Source: Pseudogymnoascus verrucosus
Taxonomy: Eukaryota
Assembly: GCA_001662655.1 (NCBI GenBank)
Contig: KV460278.1
DNA length: 20,000 bases
Strand: one strand, 5' to 3'
The notes below the pieces were generated by a model, which was not told the origin of the DNA, searched no databases, and saw nothing but the letters and a program-made list of their open reading frames with translations. The translations under genes were made by a program, and so were the position numbers. Below, one piece after another: positions 1 through 18,085 of the stretch (positions are counted from its first letter, which is position 1; every line of letters starts with the position of its first letter).

Positions 1-1065
1 GCGTGGAATATCCGGCAAATGGGCGTACTCGACCTGCCCGCCCTGATCGCGCGCGTGCTCTCCGCTACCGGCGCGCCGAAGTTGGGATTAGTAGCCCACA
101 GCCAGGGAACGACGCAGACGCTCGTGGCGCTGGCGAAGGAGCAGAGGCCGGATCTGGGGGAAAGGATTAGTGTGTTTTGTGCGCTGGCGCCGGCGGCGTA
201 TGCGGGGCCGTTGATTGGGAAGATGTATTTTAAGTTCATGCGGCTTATTTCGCCGGGGGCGTTTAGGGTGTTCTTCGGGATCCACGCGTTTATCCCGTTT
301 ATGATGACGATGCACTCACTCCTCCCGGGGAATCTGTATGGTGCGCTGGGGTACCGCGTGTTTAGCTTCTTGTTTGGGTGGTCGGATGATAGGTGGGATA
401 GGGGGTTGAGGGATCGGATGTTCCAGTTTAGTCCTGTGTATGTGTCTGCGGAGTCGATGAGGTGGTGGTTGGGGAGGGAGTGCTTTGCGAAGCAGAAGTG
501 TATTTTGCAGACGAGGGAGGAGTGGAGGGAGGAGGATAAACAGGATAGAGTGGAGGAGGAGAAACGGTCGTCTCCCGTTCTTGCGGCCGCTGACGCAGAG
601 TCTGGAGTCGAAGATGTTGAGAGGAGTGGAAGTCACGTCCACAAGGCGTCCACGGCGTGGTATGACTGCCGCGCGCCCCCTTTCGCTCTTTGGGTCGCGG
701 GTTCAGATCTCCTTGTTGATGGTAGGCGATTACTGCGCCGGTTTGCGAGCGGGAGAGAACCGCATGTTAGGGTTGTGCATCAGAAGGTTATAGAGGAGTA
801 TGAGCATCTTGATGTTATTTGGGCTGTTGATGTTGTGGAGAAGGTTGGGAGAGAGGTGAAGGAGGTGTTGTGGGCGACGTGTGAGGGGAGGGAGGGGTGG
901 AGGGTGCCGGTTGGATGTGAGGAGGTTGATGTTTGGGATGGGAAGGGGGTGGTGGGGAGTGGGAAAGAGAAGGGTGGTGAGGGGAGTGCGAGTGCAGAGG
1001 GGAGTGGGGAGAGTGAAATTGAAGAAACCGGGCGGGCGAGGGTGAAGCCTAGAGGCCGCCTGTAG
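1..1065 (+). CDS. Alpha/beta-hydrolase lipase, fungal steryl-ester hydrolase type (Tgl1/Yeh1/Yeh2-like); 5'-partial
   Basis: The frame is open from base 1 (AWNIRQMGVLDLPALI...), so the gene starts upstream of the window. Nucleophile elbow AHSQG, the ALAPAAY motif, candidate catalytic Asp (GSDLLVDG) and His (EYEHLDVIWA) match the acid-lipase/steryl-esterase family. Stop TAG at 1063-1065. Confidence 0.9.
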   Translation, partial: AWNIRQMGVLDLPALIARVLSATGAPKLGLVAHSQGTTQTLVALAKEQRPDLGERISVFCALAPAAYAGPLIGKMYFKFMRLISPGAFRVFFGIHAFIPFMMTMHSLLPGNLYGALGYRVFSFLFGWSDDRWDRGLRDRMFQFSPVYVSAESMRWWLGRECFAKQKCILQTREEWREEDKQDRVEEEKRSSPVLAAADAESGVEDVERSGSHVHKASTAWYDCRAPPFALWVAGSDLLVDGRRLLRRFASGREPHVRVVHQKVIEEYEHLDVIWAVDVVEKVGREVKEVLWATCEGREGWRVPVGCEEVDVWDGKGVVGSGKEKGGEGSASAEGSGESEIEETGRARVKPRGRL

Positions 1066-3315: not shown

Positions 3316-4680
3316 ATGCTTTCTTCACGTGGATGCATCTTTGTCCTAATTTGGGCTTACTCCCAAGTTGCCCAAGCATATACAAAGTTTGAACCGGAGT
3401 GCACGAATCCTAAAGAGGCTGTCAATTTTGTCTCTTCGCCTCCCACACGTGGGACATTGGATATACTATGGAGCTCTCTGTTCACTATATTTGCATGCAC
3501 CTGGTCTGTTCTACACCTTAATGTACCGCAGCAGAGAGTCAACCGGGACCCTGGGATACTGGGGGATCTCAAGTGGGGGATAAAAACAGTTTTGAGCAAA
3601 ACAAAATGGATGCTCTACACGGTTTTGGCCCCTGAAGTTCTTCTGCTCTATGCTGTCGCAAGACTCGTCAGTGCTTGGGAACAACACCCAGAGATAAAAG
3701 CTTTCGCTGACGCCGACCGAGTTCCATGGACGCTAGCCCATACGACATTCGCAGATATGGGCGGGTTTGTTGTACGAGGCAGGTCGGATCGTATTGGCGG
3801 AGTATCCCCTGGATCTGAGATGCCCACGGCCCCAATCCAGACACAGGTTAATGAAAGTGACCCAATCTCGGATTACGCCAACGAGTGGTATATATTGGAT
3901 CTAAAAACTATTCGGAGGTTGCGATCTGAAGGGCATATCACACTTCCTTGCATCCTTAAGGCTGAGATAGATGACCACTCAAAGGGGGATACCTTCACCA
4001 AGGTTATAGCCGCCACTCAAATCATCTGGACGATTGCGAATGCTATTACCCGAGCCTGCCGAGGCCTTGCAATCTCCCAGCTAGAAGTATCCGTTGTAGC
4101 GTTCGCAGTTTGCGCACTTCTCATCTATGCCAGTTACTGGTATAGCCCCAAGGACGTATCGGTCCCAATAACTTTTCTCCAGTGGAGAGGGCCTGTACCT
4201 TCTACAATTGCAAAGATCATCGTTAAGGGGGTAGTCTCGACTCGTCCCAAACGATATGTGGGGGTCAAAACAGGCCAAGCCCCCTTTAGGAATACCTTCG
4301 CCTACGACAACAAGAGCAGGCTCGATGTCTACACGCTTTTTTGGGGCGCTTTCTTCTTTGGCGGACCGCACCTTCTGGCGTGGAATTTTACGTTCCCTAC
4401 CCCAGCCGAGAGGATTATATGGCGAGCAACATCGTTATATTGTTCGTCAGTTGGACTAATAATATATTTTTTTTTCTATGTCCTAGAAAAGCCACTGAAG
4501 AATCTCGATATCGAATGGTCAAACACCTCTAGATTCTTGGACTTCCTTTCATATATTATCATGGCAATTTACCTATTAGCACGGCTCTTCCTGCTTGTTG
4601 AAACATTTAGGACTCTTCTTTTCTTACCCCCGAGCGCTTATATTGCAACCTGGACCTCAAGCGTGCCTATGTTTGGCTAA
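3316..4680 (+). CDS. Uncharacterised fungal multi-pass membrane protein with N-terminal signal peptide (454 aa)
   Basis: First in-frame ATG at 3316 (AAAATG). Signal-like MLSSRGCIFVLIWAYSQVAQA. Motifs RGTLDILWSSLFTIFACTWSVLHLNVP, WTLAHTTFADMGGF, EIDDHSKGDTFTK, ISQLEV, WYSPKDV, HLLAWNFTFPTPAERIIWR and ARLFLLVETFRTLLFLPPSAY match a widespread, often expanded fungal family of unknown function. About 6-7 hydrophobic segments; intronless. Confidence 0.85.
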   Translation: MLSSRGCIFVLIWAYSQVAQAYTKFEPECTNPKEAVNFVSSPPTRGTLDILWSSLFTIFACTWSVLHLNVPQQRVNRDPGILGDLKWGIKTVLSKTKWMLYTVLAPEVLLLYAVARLVSAWEQHPEIKAFADADRVPWTLAHTTFADMGGFVVRGRSDRIGGVSPGSEMPTAPIQTQVNESDPISDYANEWYILDLKTIRRLRSEGHITLPCILKAEIDDHSKGDTFTKVIAATQIIWTIANAITRACRGLAISQLEVSVVAFAVCALLIYASYWYSPKDVSVPITFLQWRGPVPSTIAKIIVKGVVSTRPKRYVGVKTGQAPFRNTFAYDNKSRLDVYTLFWGAFFFGGPHLLAWNFTFPTPAERIIWRATSLYCSSVGLIIYFFFYVLEKPLKNLDIEWSNTSRFLDFLSYIIMAIYLLARLFLLVETFRTLLFLPPSAYIATWTSSVPMFG

Positions 4681-7127
4681 GGATTAGGTAGCTCATAATA
4701 TCTGTATTGTATCTTTCATTACATACCTAAGTAATTAAGAGCATCTATTATACCGTCAACTACTGTATATGACGCAATTTTAGATAATCTTAAGTGGTTA
4801 AGAGCGTTGGTTTACTCTGTAGTTCCTATAAACAGTGTCATAATAGACAGGCTCTAGTGAGTAAGAGTATTTATTTTTCTATAGTTACTATAAGCAGCGC
4901 CATTACGGACAGGCCCCCTCTAAACTTTCAGACTGTACGAGTATATCTCCAACGTGTTTCTCATGTCCGTCACCAGCATTCAGTGTCCCCCGTCCCATGC
5001 TGCTTGGGTAGCATCGTCGCCATGCCTCTTTCCGCCCCAATTCCGATCACAGGGCTGAATACAGCAAATGTGAACGAAGTACGCTGCGCGGGCAGTGGAT
5101 AAGGTCGCATTCTGCGAAGGAGCGCAGGTCGCGGTATATGGAATCCTCGCCCACGCTCTAGCTCTCGAATGGGATTCACGCACAGAGAGATACAACAAGG
5201 ACTCCGAGAAAGAAAGCAAATAAGGGGTATCCGAATTCGCAACAAAGCGCTCTGGTCATTCACCAAATACAGATTGATTTGAGGTCTAGATTACAATGAA
5301 TGGGAGAAAGGACAAGCACCATCCATTCCTTGCTCCATGAGATATTTAGGACCGAAAACGCAACCCGCCCCCTTCTCAGAAGAGCAAGAAAACTTAGAAG
5401 TAGGAATACATTTTGTTGGACAACGTGAATTTTACTTTTGACAGAGAGTCGGTCACAGTGGAAATGGGCGAAATCATACCATATCACATCATATCTTCCT
5501 CCTCTCTGTCAATTTTCCTGTCTCCCACCTCCCCCTATTCCCCAAGGCAACGAAACCACCCCAATAACCATCTACCCCTATTCAACAGCACCACTTACTT
5601 TCACGTGATACCGCGCTCTCTTCCCATTCACATGCTCCACCACTCCAACGACTCCGTAACGGCCCGCATCTCCTCATCAGGAAAGCCGCACTGCATTACG
5701 CCCGCCCTCCACCTCGCTCCCCCCCCAGACCCATAGTTATGCCACGACGAATGCAAGCCGCGCTGCAGGTGTCAAGAAGCAGTTATGTGACGTGGAGAAC
5801 GGGCTATCGGCCGGTAGACAGGACAAGAGGGTGTGCCGTAGGCACCACAGGATAAGGAGCCACACTTCTTCTGCGCCCAAGACGGCAAACTGGGAGCGGT
5901 GAGAAAGCACCTACATGTTTCCATCGCGCTGTGGGTGTGCTGGTTATAGATAGCGATGCAATGCCCATGTGGCGAGCTCGATGTACGCGAGGAGGGGGAT
6001 AGGGTGGAGGCTTGATTCGCTGTGGTGGGGTGGTCTCGAATCGTGTCGTGCAGATGCAATACCGCTTCAGTACCGCTACGGCGCTAGATGGCTGGGATGC
6101 TTATGCGGGACGATCGATAAGGGAGGGAGAGAGGGGGGGTGGGGGCGGCCAATGGGTGGGCTTATGTATGTACTGGATATCGGGAATTGGGGAGAGGATG
6201 TTATCGTTTCCTTGATGCTGACGGAAGGGGTAGCTATAATAGAGGGGAGCTTGCATCAGGACGCGCAAGACATTACCTCATTGCTTTCGAGCTGTAGAGG
6301 TAGGTACAGTGAGCTATACGAGGTCGAGATCGACTGATCGAGATTGTTAATGGCAGAGAGTCTGGAGCTCAATCCCGCTGGTCGTAAGCATATTGCGTTT
6401 CGTCTCCTCTCCACCCGAGTGCAGCATCATCACCGTCAAAAACCTCTACGCAATCGCCCGCCATCCCACATCGTTAGCACGTGTAAACCCCCTCCCCGGT
6501 CCATTGACCCCTAGCCCACCCCCCTAGCCGCCCTACGAGGCACACTCGCCGCTGGAGTTGCCGATCCGCATCCCATCCCGAGGAGATGTAGGCATACATC
6601 TGTACTTGTAGTATAATGTACCAATTACGCGCCGGGATCTGACACACACACATACTGTTGTTGGTAGTGTAGAAGATACAATGGCCGCCCTGTTATCCGT
6701 TCCCCGAATAGATGGTCTAGACCGGAGCGCACGATGGGGAGTTGATAGGCTGGGCTGGGATGGAGTGGGCGGATGATGGAATGGGATTCTTGGAAGGCAT
6801 GGGTATAGGTTTGTTGATGGTTGGGATAGGGAAGGAAGGACAGGGCAGGGGCGGGCTGTTAGAGTGCGGGCAGTAGCGCGGGTAATCGATCGGCCGGGTG
6901 GTGGTGCTTGTCGGGCTAAGGACATAGTTGTAGGAGACAACTTGACTTCAATTAGAAAATTACATTGTAGCTTTCCATTGTTGCCCTAAATCAGTCAACT
7001 TTCCTCCATGAAAGACAGAAAATCCACGAATCAGCCGGCCGAGCTTAAACTCCGGTGGAGAACTCCATACAACGACTGATGCCCCTACTCCGACAACCAG
7101 TAGCCCCGATCCTTCTCCGAAAATTAA

Positions 7128-7458
7128 CTACGTCTCTGGGGGCGTCGCATGCCAACAACACTTTACTCCAGCGGCATCGGGCCCTGCTATGCATGGCAGT
7201 TGCACTATAACGTCGTATTGACCCATGCAGCCTCGACCCAAAGGCGGTTCGCAAGTTGCTCCTGCCTTTTCACATATATTTCCCTTCCACCCAACTTGTG
7301 CCATGACTCCTATGCGTATGATTAGCACATGTGAACTGCAGCAGCTCGCTGTTAGTACAAACCACAGATGAAAAGACTTGTGATATTAGCATCGTAGTGA
7401 TTAAATCTATATGAGGCATATCAACTTACCCAAGTATGGTAAAGGGTGTGTATCTCAT
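7128..7458 (-). CDS. Small secreted cysteine-rich peptide, beta-defensin-like Cys spacing; join(7430-7458, 7363-7376, 7128-7309), 74 aa
   Basis: Spliced product MRYTPFTILGLFICGVMA|QVGWKGNICEKAGATCEPPLGRGCMGQYDVIVQLPCIAGPDAAGVKCCWHATPPET*. Intron 1 (7377-7429) is GTAAGT..GCTAAT..AAG and intron 2 (7310-7362) is GTTTGT..GCTAAT..TAG, both 53 nt. Exons total 29+14+182=225 nt in frame. 18-aa signal peptide ending VMA. Mature pattern C-x6-C-x7-C-x11-C-x10-CC. Confidence 0.8.
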
Positions 7459-7550
7459 CTTGGGCTAGGTCTAGTTGGGGAAATGATATAATTTAGCTTT
7501 GGAAGTGTAAATTATATCGCCGTTATATTTTAGGGATTAGAAAAAGGCAT

Positions 7551-7556
7551 TTTATA
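7551..7556 (-). promoter_or_regulatory. Candidate TATA box of the Cys-rich peptide gene
   Basis: TATAAA on the minus strand about 93 nt upstream of the ATG at 7458. The region is AT-rich, so specificity is limited. Confidence 0.35.
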
Positions 7557-7723
7557 GTCTAGAAAAGCAAGCGTATCATAAATGTAATATAAACCATACA
7601 CTTACACATCGTAGGTTGCATTGGCTTCTACGAGTTTTACACATTTACACATCGCAGGCTGCAATTAGCTTTTATATAAAACTTGTTAAATCAGGAAGTG
7701 GCTCTATTGTGGTACAAATCTGC

Positions 7724-8043
7724 CAGTCATACAAGAACCCCCCCCCAAGTCGTCCCAATCACAAAAAAATAAAGCAATTTGGGCGCAGCTGAATCGCGTC
7801 AAACTCATAAACCAAAGGTCGCATGATCAAAACATACAAATTCTCATTGGAACCTACGATAAGTAAATATCTAAGTTGTGAATCAAGATATAGCTTCATT
7901 ATAAAAATTTAGCGATGACTCAGTGCTACAAGAACTCCAATAAGCCGCCCGTTATCACAAGAAAACAAAGCAATTTGGCGCAGCGGAAGCGCGCCGGGCT
8001 CATAACCCGGAGGTCGCATGATCGAAACATGCAATTGCTAATT
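7724..8043. repeat. Diverged ~120-bp direct repeat pair (7724-7848 and 7921-8043)
   Basis: Both copies share tacaagaac, atcacaa, aaagcaattt(g)ggcgcagc, ctcataa and aggtcgcatgatc.aaacat.caa in the same order and spacing. Confidence 0.85.
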
Positions 8044-13956: not shown

Positions 13957-16743
13957 TTGGGGTGGTCGTGCGCTGTTATGCGCTGTGGTGTTTTGTTCTT
14001 TGAGCATGGGATACGTGGGGTATTACCCCCTCCTCTGTCTGGGCCTCAGAACTCTATGAGCACTGTATGGACATACCGTTCATCCCATCCCTGACCAGCT
14101 ACCTCTCCCTCTCTCGTCCAACAAACTTCCAGTCCACACACAACCGAGGACACGGACAAATTTTTTGCTTACAAACGGCGTTATCATTTTATTGTTTTTT
14201 CACGGAAAGGGGGATCATCATTGCATTGCGTTGCGCGGGGTCGGCCGGTTCTGCTATCATGTCTGCGTTTTTTTGCGTTGCGTTTTGTTTTGTTTTATTT
14301 TTATTTTTTCCTTTTTTTCTCGAACTCTCTCTCTCCCGAAACATGCGCGTGGGGATGATGATGACGTTCTGCTTGTTTTTGTTTTGTTTTTTCTACTTAC
14401 AACTTCCTTCTTCTTTCTTTCTTATTCCTTCTTCTTACTCTGTATATGAACAATCGGGACACTGAAGCGGGAAACTTTGTGCGAACGCGGGTGGGGCGGA
14501 GGCGGGGGGTATTAAAAAGCATTAGACCTCGATGATCGATGTTAGGTTTTTTTTTTGGGGTCTTGGTGTTTATGGTGGGGTGTGGGGAGTTGGTTCGGGG
14601 ATAAGGGGGGGTGGGAAAAGGGGGAACAGGAACAGAGGAAGTGGAAGTGTGATATTGTGCTGTTGTGATGAGAAAGGGGAAGGGGGAAGGGGTGAATACT
14701 GGATGAGTAGAGAGGGGGCAATAGCTGTATCTAGCTGTAATGAATGCACACACACAAACAAACAAACACAAAAACGCACATACCCGCCGTCGCCGTGATT
14801 CTTCTCACTTTCAGTGACGCAACTCCCACATTAGTAACCCACCACCACAACCACCACCAGTTCGTCGTCCCGTCCCGTTCCTTTCCCACCCACCTCCCCC
14901 TTTCCCACCCGCCTTCCCTTTCCTCCTTCCCCCCCCCCCCCCCGTTTCCCAACCCCCCAAACTCATTGGCCACCCCCCAACTCACGTGACGCAAACCTCA
15001 TGCGGCCTCCTGTACACCCCTCCACCCAATCCAAACCCGCAAACGAGCCAAGACCAGCGTTCGAGGTTGTGGTTGGGTGGTGAGGGGAGGTAGGTGCCTG
15101 ATGTGATATTGCCCTGGATTCCGTTTCGTTGGGTTTGGATTTTGGGGCTGGGATGGGAGGCGGAGGGGAAGGTGAGGCGGACTGGTGTGGTGTGGTGTTG
15201 TTTATTTCTGGGGGGTTTTGGGATGGGTATGGGGATTGCGTGTTCGATACTGCGATGTTGCTGCGGATAGATAGGCGGGTGGAAAGACAGTATGCAGACG
15301 TTCTATTCAAAGCCCTATAGATCTAAACTCGGTGATATGCATACATACATACCCACAGCACGTCTCAGCCTCGTCTCGCGGCTTCCGGTTCACCTCGCCT
15401 CGGAGACGAAGATGGGGCCTTCACCTCAACCTGTCTTGTTTCCTCCCTCTGGCCCATCGCCATCTCGACGGCAGTACCAGATATGGACCCCGCGACTCCG
15501 ATAACGCGTTATGGTAAACACCTCTTACCACCCCAAACACACCAAAATCTCAGCCCTAGCAATCACCTGCCCACCCCTCCCCGAGACAGAGGCGTAGACT
15601 AGACTTACCGGACGGTAGCTGGAGCGAGACAAGACCCTTCGTCCCCACCACTTATCTCGCTTCGTCGGCGCCAGCGGCGGCGCCAGCGGTGGTGGAATGG
15701 TGATAGTAGTGTTAGAGTCAGTAGTGCTGTCTCACGCGGTACGGTGCGGTGCGGTGCGTAGCGGCTTGGGGGTGGTGGTGGATGGGGGAGGCGTCGGATA
15801 GAGATTAGTTGTGGACTTAGGGATGGGAGTGGTGGTGGTGGGATACGTGGAGGGAGAAGGAGTGGGATGGAGATGGTAGATTGGACAGGACAAGAAGTCA
15901 TGTGTAGAGAACACTGAAACCGTGAGGCTAAACATACGTATAACTTAGGTCACTGGATCCCCATCATCAAAAGTGAGAGTCTCTCTCTTTCCCCTCAAAG
16001 ATCGATCACTGGACTGAGAGGAGAGGGAGAGGAGGGAGAGTCACTAGATCGCCGCCGCCGCGTCGTCACCATCGCCACAGCCGCTCACCTTCCTCAAGCA
16101 TCAGCGCGTCGCGCATCCAACCAAGCCGGTTACGCGTGACATCTCCCCTTCCTCAAGCATCCCCATCCTCTCCCATCCCCGTCATCCTATCCTCTCCTAT
16201 ACTCTCCAAACCAAACCCGGAGATACGCGCCGCGCACGTGCTCTCTCCTCTCTCCTGCCCCAGCCTATTCAATCACCTGCTCCCTTCCCATCGCGTCCGT
16301 CGTCACTTCACGTATATCCTTGGCATACGGAGCTCCGTAGGGCACCACTCAAGGAACCAAAGCATCCGGATCATCTCCCACCTCCCACCTCACACTCTCT
16401 CTCGCTCCTCGCTCATCTTTCGCTTCACGGGGTGGATCCCTGATCAAGCCAGTCAACAGCGGTATAGGACCGACTCCATCCCATCACAGCTCTGCTCTGT
16501 GCATCTAGGTTGCGTGATTGGGCGGTGTATGCTGTCACTGGTCACTGTTCCTTGAGGTACCAGGGGGTTGGGAAATTCGAGGCGTAGGGGGAATTGTGAT
16601 TTGTTCCCCTTGCTCGCCTGGTTGGGCGCGTAAAAATGGGTGAGTGAGGGTGTGGTGGACCAGTTAGAAAAAAGGAAATACACGAAAATACAGGTATTTT
16701 TTATTTTCTGATTTTCTTTTTTAATTTCTTTTTAGGGAGGAGG

Positions 16744-16779
16744 NNNNNNNNNNNNNNNNNNNNNNNNNNNNNNNNNNNN
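16744..16779. other. Assembly gap (N run)
   Basis: 36 Ns. Confidence 0.99.
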
Positions 16780-16996
16780 TGTGCCTACCGGTGAAGGAAG
16801 GATGGGGGACGGAGATGAACGACGGAGATGAGCTTGAGCTGGGGGGCTGTCGTCCGGGGCTTGTTCTTTTTCGCCTCCTCCCAGTCTAGGATGAACAAAC
16901 TTGGGCATGATACTCGAGTACAGACAGACAGTATCGCCTACACCGGAGGAAAAGTGGCATGGATGGGGGAACTGGGGATGGGGATGGATGAGCATA

Positions 16997-17085
16997 NNNN
17001 NNNNNNNNNNNNNNNNNNNNNNNNNNNNNNNNNNNNNNNNNNNNNNNNNNNNNNNNNNNNNNNNNNNNNNNNNNNNNNNNNNNNN
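16997..17085. other. Assembly gap (N run)
   Basis: 89 Ns. Confidence 0.99.
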
Positions 17086-18085
17086 ACGCAGGCCCTTCCT
17101 TCTGTTACTCCCTCCTTGGGATTTCCGCAAACGGCCACCATCCATCACACCAGCACCAGGATTTGAGATATTCCTCCGACTGTAACTTAACATTTTCTGT
17201 GTAAGAGTATCGCCCCATCTCGTCCGCACACCGAACCGCCGACTCGACTCGTGCTGCAGATCTAGCATCACACATCGCAGGGTGCAAAACTACAGTACAG
17301 TTAGTCGGTGGATGGATGTGATGTGAAGAGATGTGATATCTCCCCCCAAAGATACATACATACATCCAGCGAGCGAGCGCCTACATACATGCGTGCGTGT
17401 GTGGCGTAGGTACATCCCTCACGTGTACCATCATCACATCACAGCACAGCAGTACGGTACAGCACGCACGGCCCGGCACGAAAGAAACGAACAGGACAGC
17501 ACAGCAGGCGGTGCAAAATACCTATCCGCCGTACGTAGTTGCGGTCAATTCACCGACTTTTTGCCCCATCCGCGCCACTGTGGCCACGCCGGGGGGGGGG
17601 GTGCTATTCTTGTGCTGTTGCCTGGTATAGTGGTATAGAATGAAGTTGTATAGTTACTGTAGTGCGGGTATCTGGGCTGGGATGGGGGGATGTCATCGAT
17701 AGACAACACAACCTGACTGAACTGACAGATGCAGGACGGTGAGCGAGAGGGTTGCGAGAGGCCCGAGCAGCTGGCGGTGGAGATGTCTGGTGTGTGTGGT
17801 GTGGTCCTGGTGGTGTGTGGTCGGGGCCCAGCCCATCCATCCACCCCCATCCAGAGCGCGCCCAGCCGGACAGGGCGTCGGGGATTAAACTGTTTTTTCG
17901 GGATTGAAGGGACGGATGGGGGATATGACGGCATTTTTCTGATGTCGCCCAGTCTCATTTCGCACTCCTGGTGGCTGTGGCTTTTCAAGTCGACCAGGAG
18001 CTCGGGCACAATAATGATGATGATGACGGTGAGCCGCGTTGGGTAAATTGGCTGGGGGAGTGTGCTACGGGAGGCTGGTCTCGAG

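Follow-up and report, generated by a model that had tools for sequence, protein, structure and literature searches.

A probable secreted six-cysteine peptide gene of Pseudogymnoascus verrucosus and its possible likeness to beta-defensins

Trans-defensins have been described from vertebrates and also from invertebrates, in the form of big defensins, and the defensins of fungi belong to the cis type (PMC8877149). The framework of fungal cis-defensins is C...CxxxC...C...CxC, and beta-defensin-like disulfide patterns have been predicted for some of their divergent relatives (PMC5234102). The gene described here lies on the minus strand of a 20,000-nucleotide (nt) stretch of contig KV460278.1 of the fungus Pseudogymnoascus verrucosus (assembly GCA_001662655.1), which is referred to as the window throughout, and would code for a small secreted peptide with six cysteines (Cys). 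The genus Pseudogymnoascus includes an important bat pathogen.

In beta-defensins, the canonical spacing of the six Cys is 6-4-9-6-0, and the glycine (Gly) located three residues before the second Cys (C2) is conserved. Platypus defensin-like peptides (DLPs) and SCRiP act by binding protein targets and not by membrane lysis. Magnificamide is described as a sea-anemone alpha-amylase inhibitor. A further class of small fungal proteins is that of hydrophobins, which are characterized by eight Cys in the pattern C-CC-C-C-CC-C, as given in PMC8596622.

The peptide of the window has relatives in other fungi, which are called here the CCWH family from a motif that they share. Taken as a whole, the best explanation is that of a Pseudogymnoascus gene for a secreted six-Cys peptide, with the structure, processing, fold and mechanism discussed below, and it is held with moderate confidence.

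Gene structure and homologues

Reading of the minus strand and recomputation of the coordinates place the ATG at 7458, with an A at -3 (Table 1). The original prediction, made from the letters of the sequence, had pointed out that only a fragment of 66 amino acids (aa) is visible among the open reading frames (ORFs), and the stop-to-stop ORF 7131-7328 is indeed of 66 aa. It had also proposed that removal of two 53-nt introns yields a 74-aa precursor, from which a 56-aa mature peptide starting with glutamine (Gln) and following the pattern C-x6-C-x7-C-x11-C-x10-CC is released. This arithmetic was reproduced from the coordinates, since the joined three-exon frame measures 225 nt (74 codons and the stop) and the Cys spacing is 6-7-11-10-0. 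Signal-peptide cleavage sites have small residues at positions -3 and -1. In the predicted precursor these positions are occupied by V and A, so that cleavage would be expected after V-M-A, at the end of an 18-residue predicted signal peptide; the leader exists only in the spliced frame. Gln is the first residue after the predicted cut in 8 of the 22 aligned family members, by our own reading of the alignment, and an N-terminal pyroglutamate is therefore plausible.

It is very probable that this is a real, unannotated gene whose product belongs, as a divergent member, to an undescribed family of small secreted six-Cys peptides. A phmmer search of 1.84 billion representatives gave five matches at E <= 0.001, four of which (P0002, P0004, P0005 and P0006; E 2.7e-09 to 3.3e-04) keep the six Cys and an N-terminal hydrophobic leader. 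The fifth, P0003 (289 aa, E 1.9e-05), is a repeat protein which matches residues 30-48 only and is devoid of the Cys framework, and it was dropped. A profile made from the peptide and the four relatives retrieved 21 proteins (E 3.2e-32 to 5.4e-12); 17 of these were new, the other four being already part of the query profile. The named matches belong to a dozen Trichoderma species, including T. asperellum/asperelloides, T. ceciliae and T. harzianum, to Beauveria bassiana, Ophiocordyceps camponoti-floridani and Hapsidospora chrysogenum, and to Halteromyces radiatus of the Mucorales, while the remaining ones are Logan, JGI or ENA sequences. All family proteins are labelled "hypothetical", and all full-length homologues start with a hydrophobic leader. 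For the original prediction, a lack of spliced reads in any condition combined with a lack of homologues conserving the Cys would have told against the gene; because Cys-conserving relatives were found, with a best phmmer E of 2.7e-09 and 21 proteins by profile, the gene stands.

The window peptide and the 21 profile matches form an alignment of 22 rows. Ten residues are invariant in all of them (C9, C16, C24, L34, P35, C36, C47, C48, W49 and H50) and eight are nearly invariant (N7, P8, E10, G13, F23, G26, D29 and G46), the family hallmark being N-P-C-E...C-D/E-P...L-P-C...C-C-W-H. The Cys spacing is 6-7-11-9-0 in 16 of the 22 rows, and 6-7-11-10-0 in the window peptide and one other. When 12 family sequences were compared with the window by tblastn, all 12 matched exon 3 (E 1e-17 to 7e-08); no other site fell below E 1e-3 with these queries, hence there is no paralogue within the 20 kb. 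Two features make the assignment of the peptide to the family less comfortable. It is the most divergent member, three of the eight nearly invariant positions being replaced (P8, F23 and G46), and it is placed on a long branch (1.27 versus a median of 0.24). In the family tree, 15 of 19 inner branches are open, and given this poor resolution no claim is made on origin or transfer.

The family appears to be previously undescribed and known in databases as hypothetical proteins only. No Pfam family reaches its cut-off with any of the 22 members, a word-indexed search with the single peptide sequence gave no match, and no usable match to the peptide was present in the ESM Atlas. No paper on the family was found in the literature, where the supplementary tables of Trichoderma secretome studies, which lay outside the search, may list relatives. 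Among the predicted proteins of the two collections searched, no Pseudogymnoascus protein matched the family, so the gene is either unannotated in Pseudogymnoascus or absent from these collections. Searches of the sequences in the PDB returned the ectodomain of the GIP receptor with the single peptide (E 0.0024) and the cysteine-rich domain of mGluR6 with the profile (E 5.1, not significant). The mGluR6 segment resembles the family stretch L-P-C-G-P...C-C-W-H (profile positions 53-71, about residues 33-51 of the peptide). Both matches are probably a chance likeness of Cys-rich hairpins.

Some members of the family depart from the simple architecture of leader and core. An acidic pro-region of 35-50 residues lies between leader and core in P0006, P0018, P0020 and P0024, Trp-rich N-W-x-D-N-W repeats are present in P0019, P0021 and P0023, and P0022 and P0025 have a Trp-rich C-terminal tail. 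These additions suggest family sub-types that may undergo extra processing or anchoring. A scan of metagenomes gave a single locus (L001, 1078-1299), an intronless homologue on a very AT-rich contig whose product is identical to P0013, and another intronless homologue, P0016, comes from a Mucorales species. On account of these intronless homologues, the family is regarded as patchy across distant fungal phyla.

Three relatives (P0018, P0021 and P0024) bear the UniRef name "Hydrophobin", which raises the question of whether the family consists of hydrophobin-like surface-active proteins. Against this, there are six Cys in place of the eight of the hydrophobin pattern, none of the 22 members matches a hydrophobin Pfam model at E <= 1, and the grand average of hydropathy (GRAVY) is around zero or negative in most members, so that a hydrophobin nature is extremely improbable. 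Since no Pfam hydrophobin match is obtained, the UniRef name looks mis-assigned, and the original prediction, which had set the peptide apart from hydrophobins by its Cys count, is upheld. Some putative Trichoderma hydrophobins, which may or may not include P0018, P0021 and P0024, have been reported as mis-assigned (PMC8596622).

A contig of the sequencing run X3, which is closely related to the window and covers 6849-7797, allows the variation of the gene to be considered. The contigs of the four sequencing runs, which also include X1 (7298-7470) and X4 (7240-7412), are DNA-like with introns retained and are uninformative on expression or splicing. In X3, the mature peptide differs at ten codons, seven of them by synonymous third-position changes and three by amino-acid replacements (A to V, R to K and M to S); two of the three replacements move towards the family consensus, and no Cys is altered. 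Read in the other two frames, the same differences change 11 and 8 residues. Such a pattern marks a frame that is translated and under purifying selection, although taken by itself the test is no more than suggestive, with 7 of the 12 base changes lying at third positions (p = 0.07). The opposite view would be that no working gene exists here and that the frame arose by chance or belongs to a decaying pseudogene copy. The missing annotation and the long branch of this most divergent member would agree with it. On the other hand, the frame is intact, none of the ten residues invariant in the family is lost, a start codon, splice signals and a stop are present, and the changes with respect to the related strain are mostly synonymous and leave the Cys untouched; the probability left to such a view is minimal.

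The substitutions of X3 are also unevenly distributed. Thirteen of the 21 listed ones fall in the 182-nt exon 3 and none in the 149 nt of the introns and exons 1-2 (Fisher p = 1.6e-05, or 8e-04 on the assumption that all 7 unlisted differences are outside). Synonymous divergence in exon 3 is far above that of the adjacent non-coding DNA, for which gene conversion from a paralogue and old balanced alleles are possibilities. Exon 3 begins at 7309 with a base that is different in X1, X3 and X4, where Ala is encoded in the signal peptide in place of the Gly of the window.

As to the 5′ part of the gene, a three-exon precursor structure that includes a 14-nt micro-exon is likely. The case for the 5′ exons rests on homology. 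When an N-terminal motif derived from six homologues was sought in all six translated frames of the window, exon 1 gave the single match, and none of 300 shuffles contained the motif, a result that is somewhat post hoc because the motif was composed after the target had been seen, one gap being loosened to fit. The N-terminal tblastn segment pairs of 7 of the 12 family queries also fall at 7458-7429, each being individually insignificant (E 15-101), and a likeness to the leaders of P0006, P0009 and P0022 is seen in exon 1. With the micro-exon, four residues separate the FT[IV]L[GS] motif from the G-x-M/S-A end of the leader, the same number as in the annotated homologues P0009, P0012, P0014, P0022 and P0025. 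Finally, P0005 and P0015, both 104-aa ORFs, contain two insertions absent from other members on either side of an L-S-I-S-G segment, and these look like an in-frame read-through of two introns around a micro-exon.

Enumeration of GT..AG combinations gave seven in-frame models. In the most serious competitor, one 94-nt intron (7429-7336) takes the place of both 53-nt introns and of the micro-exon, and the precursor is of 78 residues with a longer leader. Its signals are all consensus, namely a GTAAGT donor and a perfect TACTAAC located about 16 nt before a CAG acceptor; this TACTAAC lies inside intron 2 and could serve it. The three-exon model is weaker in this respect, as the AAG acceptor of intron 1 is poorer than the usual YAG, and both this acceptor and the GTTTGT donor of intron 2 fall behind the signals of the 94-nt intron. 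The leader resulting from the single intron has His and Arg within its hydrophobic core, is four residues longer between FT[IV]L[GS] and G-x-M-A than in the five annotated homologues, and would leave the apparent two-intron read-through in P0005 and P0015 without a counterpart, which makes the single intron unlikely. The three-exon model is thus retained, with the predicted exon 2 as the least certain part of the gene. The mature peptide is identical under both models.

Table 1. Coordinates of the predicted peptide gene, of a possible promoter element and of a tRNA gene in the window
Feature	Positions	Strand	Description
Exon 1	7430..7458	-	29 nt; first 9 residues and two bases of codon 10, putative signal peptide
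Intron 1 (predicted)	7377..7429	-	53 nt; GTAAGT donor, CTAAT branch-like sequence 11 nt before AAG acceptor
Exon 2 (predicted micro-exon)	7363..7376	-	14 nt; middle of the hydrophobic core of the putative signal peptide
Intron 2 (predicted)	7310..7362	-	53 nt; GTTTGT donor, GCTAAT branch-like sequence 15 nt before TAG acceptor
Exon 3	7128..7309	-	182 nt; end of signal peptide, entire mature peptide, TAG stop at 7130-7128
Predicted mature-peptide coding sequence (P0001)	7131..7298	-	56 residues, six Cys, N-terminal Gln
TATAAA, possible core promoter element	7551..7556	-	93-98 nt upstream of the ATG, from reading of the sequence
tRNA-Met (CAT)	7969..8040	+	about 510 nt upstream of the peptide ATG, opposite strand

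Predicted fold and charge

The order C-C-C-C-CC, which the original prediction had described as of beta-defensin type, is confirmed, and the structural modelling is in line with it to some extent. With the 22-row alignment, AlphaFold2 (AF2) gave a best model with a predicted local distance difference test (pLDDT) of 75.3 and a predicted template modelling score (pTM) of 0.54, the five models ranging from 68.6 to 75.3 in pLDDT. The model consists of a helix (residues 8-11) and three strands (15-17, 29-32 and 46-50). A Foldseek search of the PDB gave 13 rows, all of beta-defensin type: two hBD-2 chains, eight hBD-1 entries, hBD-6, platypus DLP-1 and an avian defensin, at E 2.5-9.4 and with a probability of at most 0.21. 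VIA, which is independent of Foldseek, was applied to 48,161 chains and placed hBD-2 (1FD3) at the top, with Z 3.4, a root-mean-square deviation (rmsd) of 1.9 A, 36 of 41 residues aligned and 33% identity. Of the 21 rows with Z >= 2, 16 bear titles that mark them as defensin-type, and these comprise hBD-1, -2, -4 and -6, avian and crocodile defensins, the platypus peptides DLP-1, DLP-2 and Int-DLP, an alpha-defensin, a big defensin, crotamine and SCRiP1, the last two of which we take to have the beta-defensin fold. The fold search suggested with the original prediction was therefore productive in that the matches are almost exclusively of beta-defensin type; it fell short in their strength (Foldseek E >= 2.5, Z <= 3.4).

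The pairing of the Cys can be approached through these superpositions. In the hBD-1 entries, 34 of 36 residues are aligned with an rmsd of 1.9-2.1 A, and both hBD-1 (residues 3-36) and hBD-2 (residues 6-41) are matched without internal gaps, leaving nine model residues unaligned. Three loops of the peptide exceed the canonical beta-defensin spacing by 3, 2 and 4 residues. Since the nine unaligned residues equal the summed excess of the loops, the six Cys would be in register, and the disulfides would be C1-C5, C2-C4 and C3-C6.

Several observations count against a beta-defensin-like fold. The model obtained from the single sequence is poor (pLDDT 54). The fold matches are weak, with Foldseek E >= 2.5 and Z <= 3.4, and the tool itself warns that Z under 8 may reflect no more than a common arrangement. 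AF2 may in addition echo the Cys pattern, and no Pfam defensin model reaches its cut-off among the 22 members, the best score being 18.9 bits against 25. This score belongs to PF17858 (Defensin_int, Platypus intermediate defensin-like peptide), which is found below threshold (15.6-18.9 bits) in 3 of the 22 members, the window peptide not being one of them.

It is thus a substantial possibility that the peptide is a disulfide-rich mini-protein of another fold or connectivity, its likeness to defensins being an AlphaFold artefact or a loose convergence. The modest pLDDT and pTM, both from 22 sequences, the statistical weakness of all structural matches, the lack of a defensin Pfam model above cut-off, the three longer loops and the anionic character of the family would all be compatible with this alternative. 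It accounts less well for the fact that two independent aligners give defensin-type chains (13 of 13 and 16 of 21 rows), that the model covers hBD-1 and hBD-2 from one end to the other at an rmsd of 1.9-2.0 A, and that the five AF2 models agree. On balance, a beta-defensin-like fold, consisting of a short helix and a three-stranded sheet with three disulfides and three longer loops, is given about an even chance on the strength of the model.

The mature peptide has a net charge of -1 and does not possess the cationic charge typical of beta-defensins. The cores of the family are negative in 16 of 22 members, neutral in one and positive in five (+1 to +3), many of them with an isoelectric point (pI) of 4.0-5.0. 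The suspicion voiced in the original prediction that the peptide may not be a cationic membrane-lytic one agrees with these values. A classical antimicrobial defensin with cationic membrane attack might be expected from the Cys order and the predicted beta-defensin-like fold, and five cores are at least mildly cationic; the negative charge here and in most of the family, the low pI of many cores and, for a defensin of the fungal type, the missing cysteine-stabilised alpha-beta (CSalpha-beta) framework render it very unlikely. Because the family is mostly anionic, membrane lysis seems less likely and target binding likelier.

A possible course of events can be outlined for the precursor. It would enter the endoplasmic reticulum via the 18-residue predicted signal peptide and would be cut after the small-x-small site V-M-A, exposing an N-terminal Gln able to cyclise to pyroglutamate. 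The 56-residue product would then fold as a helix and a three-stranded sheet with three disulfides, probably C1-C5, C2-C4 and C3-C6, and might bind a specific protein target outside the cell, either as an enzyme inhibitor or as a channel or receptor ligand. Such a target-binding role, as inhibitor or ligand, is proposed from charge and from analogy with non-cationic animal peptides of the beta-defensin fold, several of which work in this manner; it is the preferred reading of the mechanism and is held with low confidence.

Genomic surroundings

The neighbouring ORF at 3316-4677 (+) encodes a protein of 454 aa, whose best match is a Pseudogymnoascus sp. protein with 94% identity; among the top 34 rows, 21 carry a name, and 16 of these are from Pseudogymnoascus, which assigns the window to this genus (Leotiomycetes). 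The 454-aa protein is conserved widely in Leotiomycetes and Sordariomycetes and is without precomputed Pfam domains. At one end of the window, the open-ended ORF 1-1065 (+) contains, by reading, a lipase-like H-S-Q-G motif. Elsewhere, at about 16740-17290, the window has N stretches (masked or unassembled), seen as X runs in the translated frames.

A 44-nt element is situated at 7034-7077, 51-94 nt downstream of the stop codon of the peptide gene. It occurs once in the window and is found on many differently flanked contigs, at a depth of at least 20-fold, in X2 (a soil metagenome), X3 and X4, with two copies separated by 2 kb on one contig of X3. The element, a dispersed short repeat, matches no Rfam entry, and its RNA fold is unremarkable (z 0.49).

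Relation to known cysteine-rich peptides

In the current picture, fungi have cis-defensins only and the trans type is confined to animals (PMC8877149); the CCWH family would test this picture directly. A beta-defensin-like fold has not been reported from fungi and is here predicted for a fungal family. As a tentative possibility, the CCWH peptides may constitute the first non-animal family with the beta-defensin (trans-defensin) fold, with the connectivity C1-C5, C2-C4, C3-C6, an anionic character, a distribution over Leotiomycetes, Hypocreales and Mucoromycota-like fungi, and a likely non-lytic, target-binding function. If this were true, the trans-defensin fold would predate the animal-fungal split, or would be convergent, or would have been transferred between fungi, and the likely function would be new to fungal biology. 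Apart from the fold, the case illustrates how an exon of 14 nt may keep the gene of a secreted peptide out of annotations, and the presence of relatives in biocontrol and insect-pathogenic fungi makes this secreted peptide family worthy of a functional look.

Hydrophobins and the HFS "hyphosphere" proteins of Trichoderma resemble the CCWH peptides in being small, Cys-rich and fungal, and in secretion, which is predicted here. The HFS proteins were considered as possible relatives and rejected, as they have eight single Cys (PMC8596622). With the plectasin-type CSalpha-beta (cis) defensins of fungi the peptide shares six Cys and, as predicted here, secretion and three disulfides. Its 56 residues contain neither CxxxC nor CxC and the framework ends in CC, unlike that of cis-defensins, so that the original prediction was right to place it outside the CSalpha-beta class. 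The divergent cis-defensin relatives for which beta-defensin-like disulfide patterns have been predicted have a different framework and belong to a different family (PMC5234102).

Among animal peptides of the beta-defensin fold, platypus DLPs, the cnidarian SCRiP and the alpha-amylase inhibitors of sea anemones, such as magnificamide, are non-cationic. The window peptide resembles them in small size and would also share their three disulfides and fold class, both of which are predicted here. The tie in sequence with DLPs, SCRiP and magnificamide is limited to the sub-threshold Defensin_int scores in three relatives. Among known structures, the model comes closest to vertebrate beta-defensins (hBD-2 1FD3, hBD-1, -4 and -6, and those of birds and crocodiles). 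Like them, the peptide has the order C-C-C-C-CC, a first loop of x6 and, in the model, a short N-terminal helix followed by three strands, and the Gly three residues before C2 is nearly invariant in the fungal family. Unlike them, it is fungal and anionic, shows no significant sequence similarity to them and has three longer loops. Membership of the beta-defensin family proper is not claimed, as the peptide lacks both a match to the curated profile and the cationic charge.

The closest counterparts remain the hypothetical proteins of Hypocreales and Halteromyces radiatus, whose cores are 38-58% identical to the window peptide (32% for P0024). They share with it the six-Cys framework, the L-P-C and C-C-W-H motifs, the signal peptide, which is predicted in the window copy, and, in the short forms, a length of 70-75 aa. 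The window copy differs from them in its occurrence in Leotiomycetes, in its lack of annotation and in an extra residue in the fourth loop, whereas some of these relatives have acidic or Trp-rich pro-regions or C-terminal tails that the window copy does not have.

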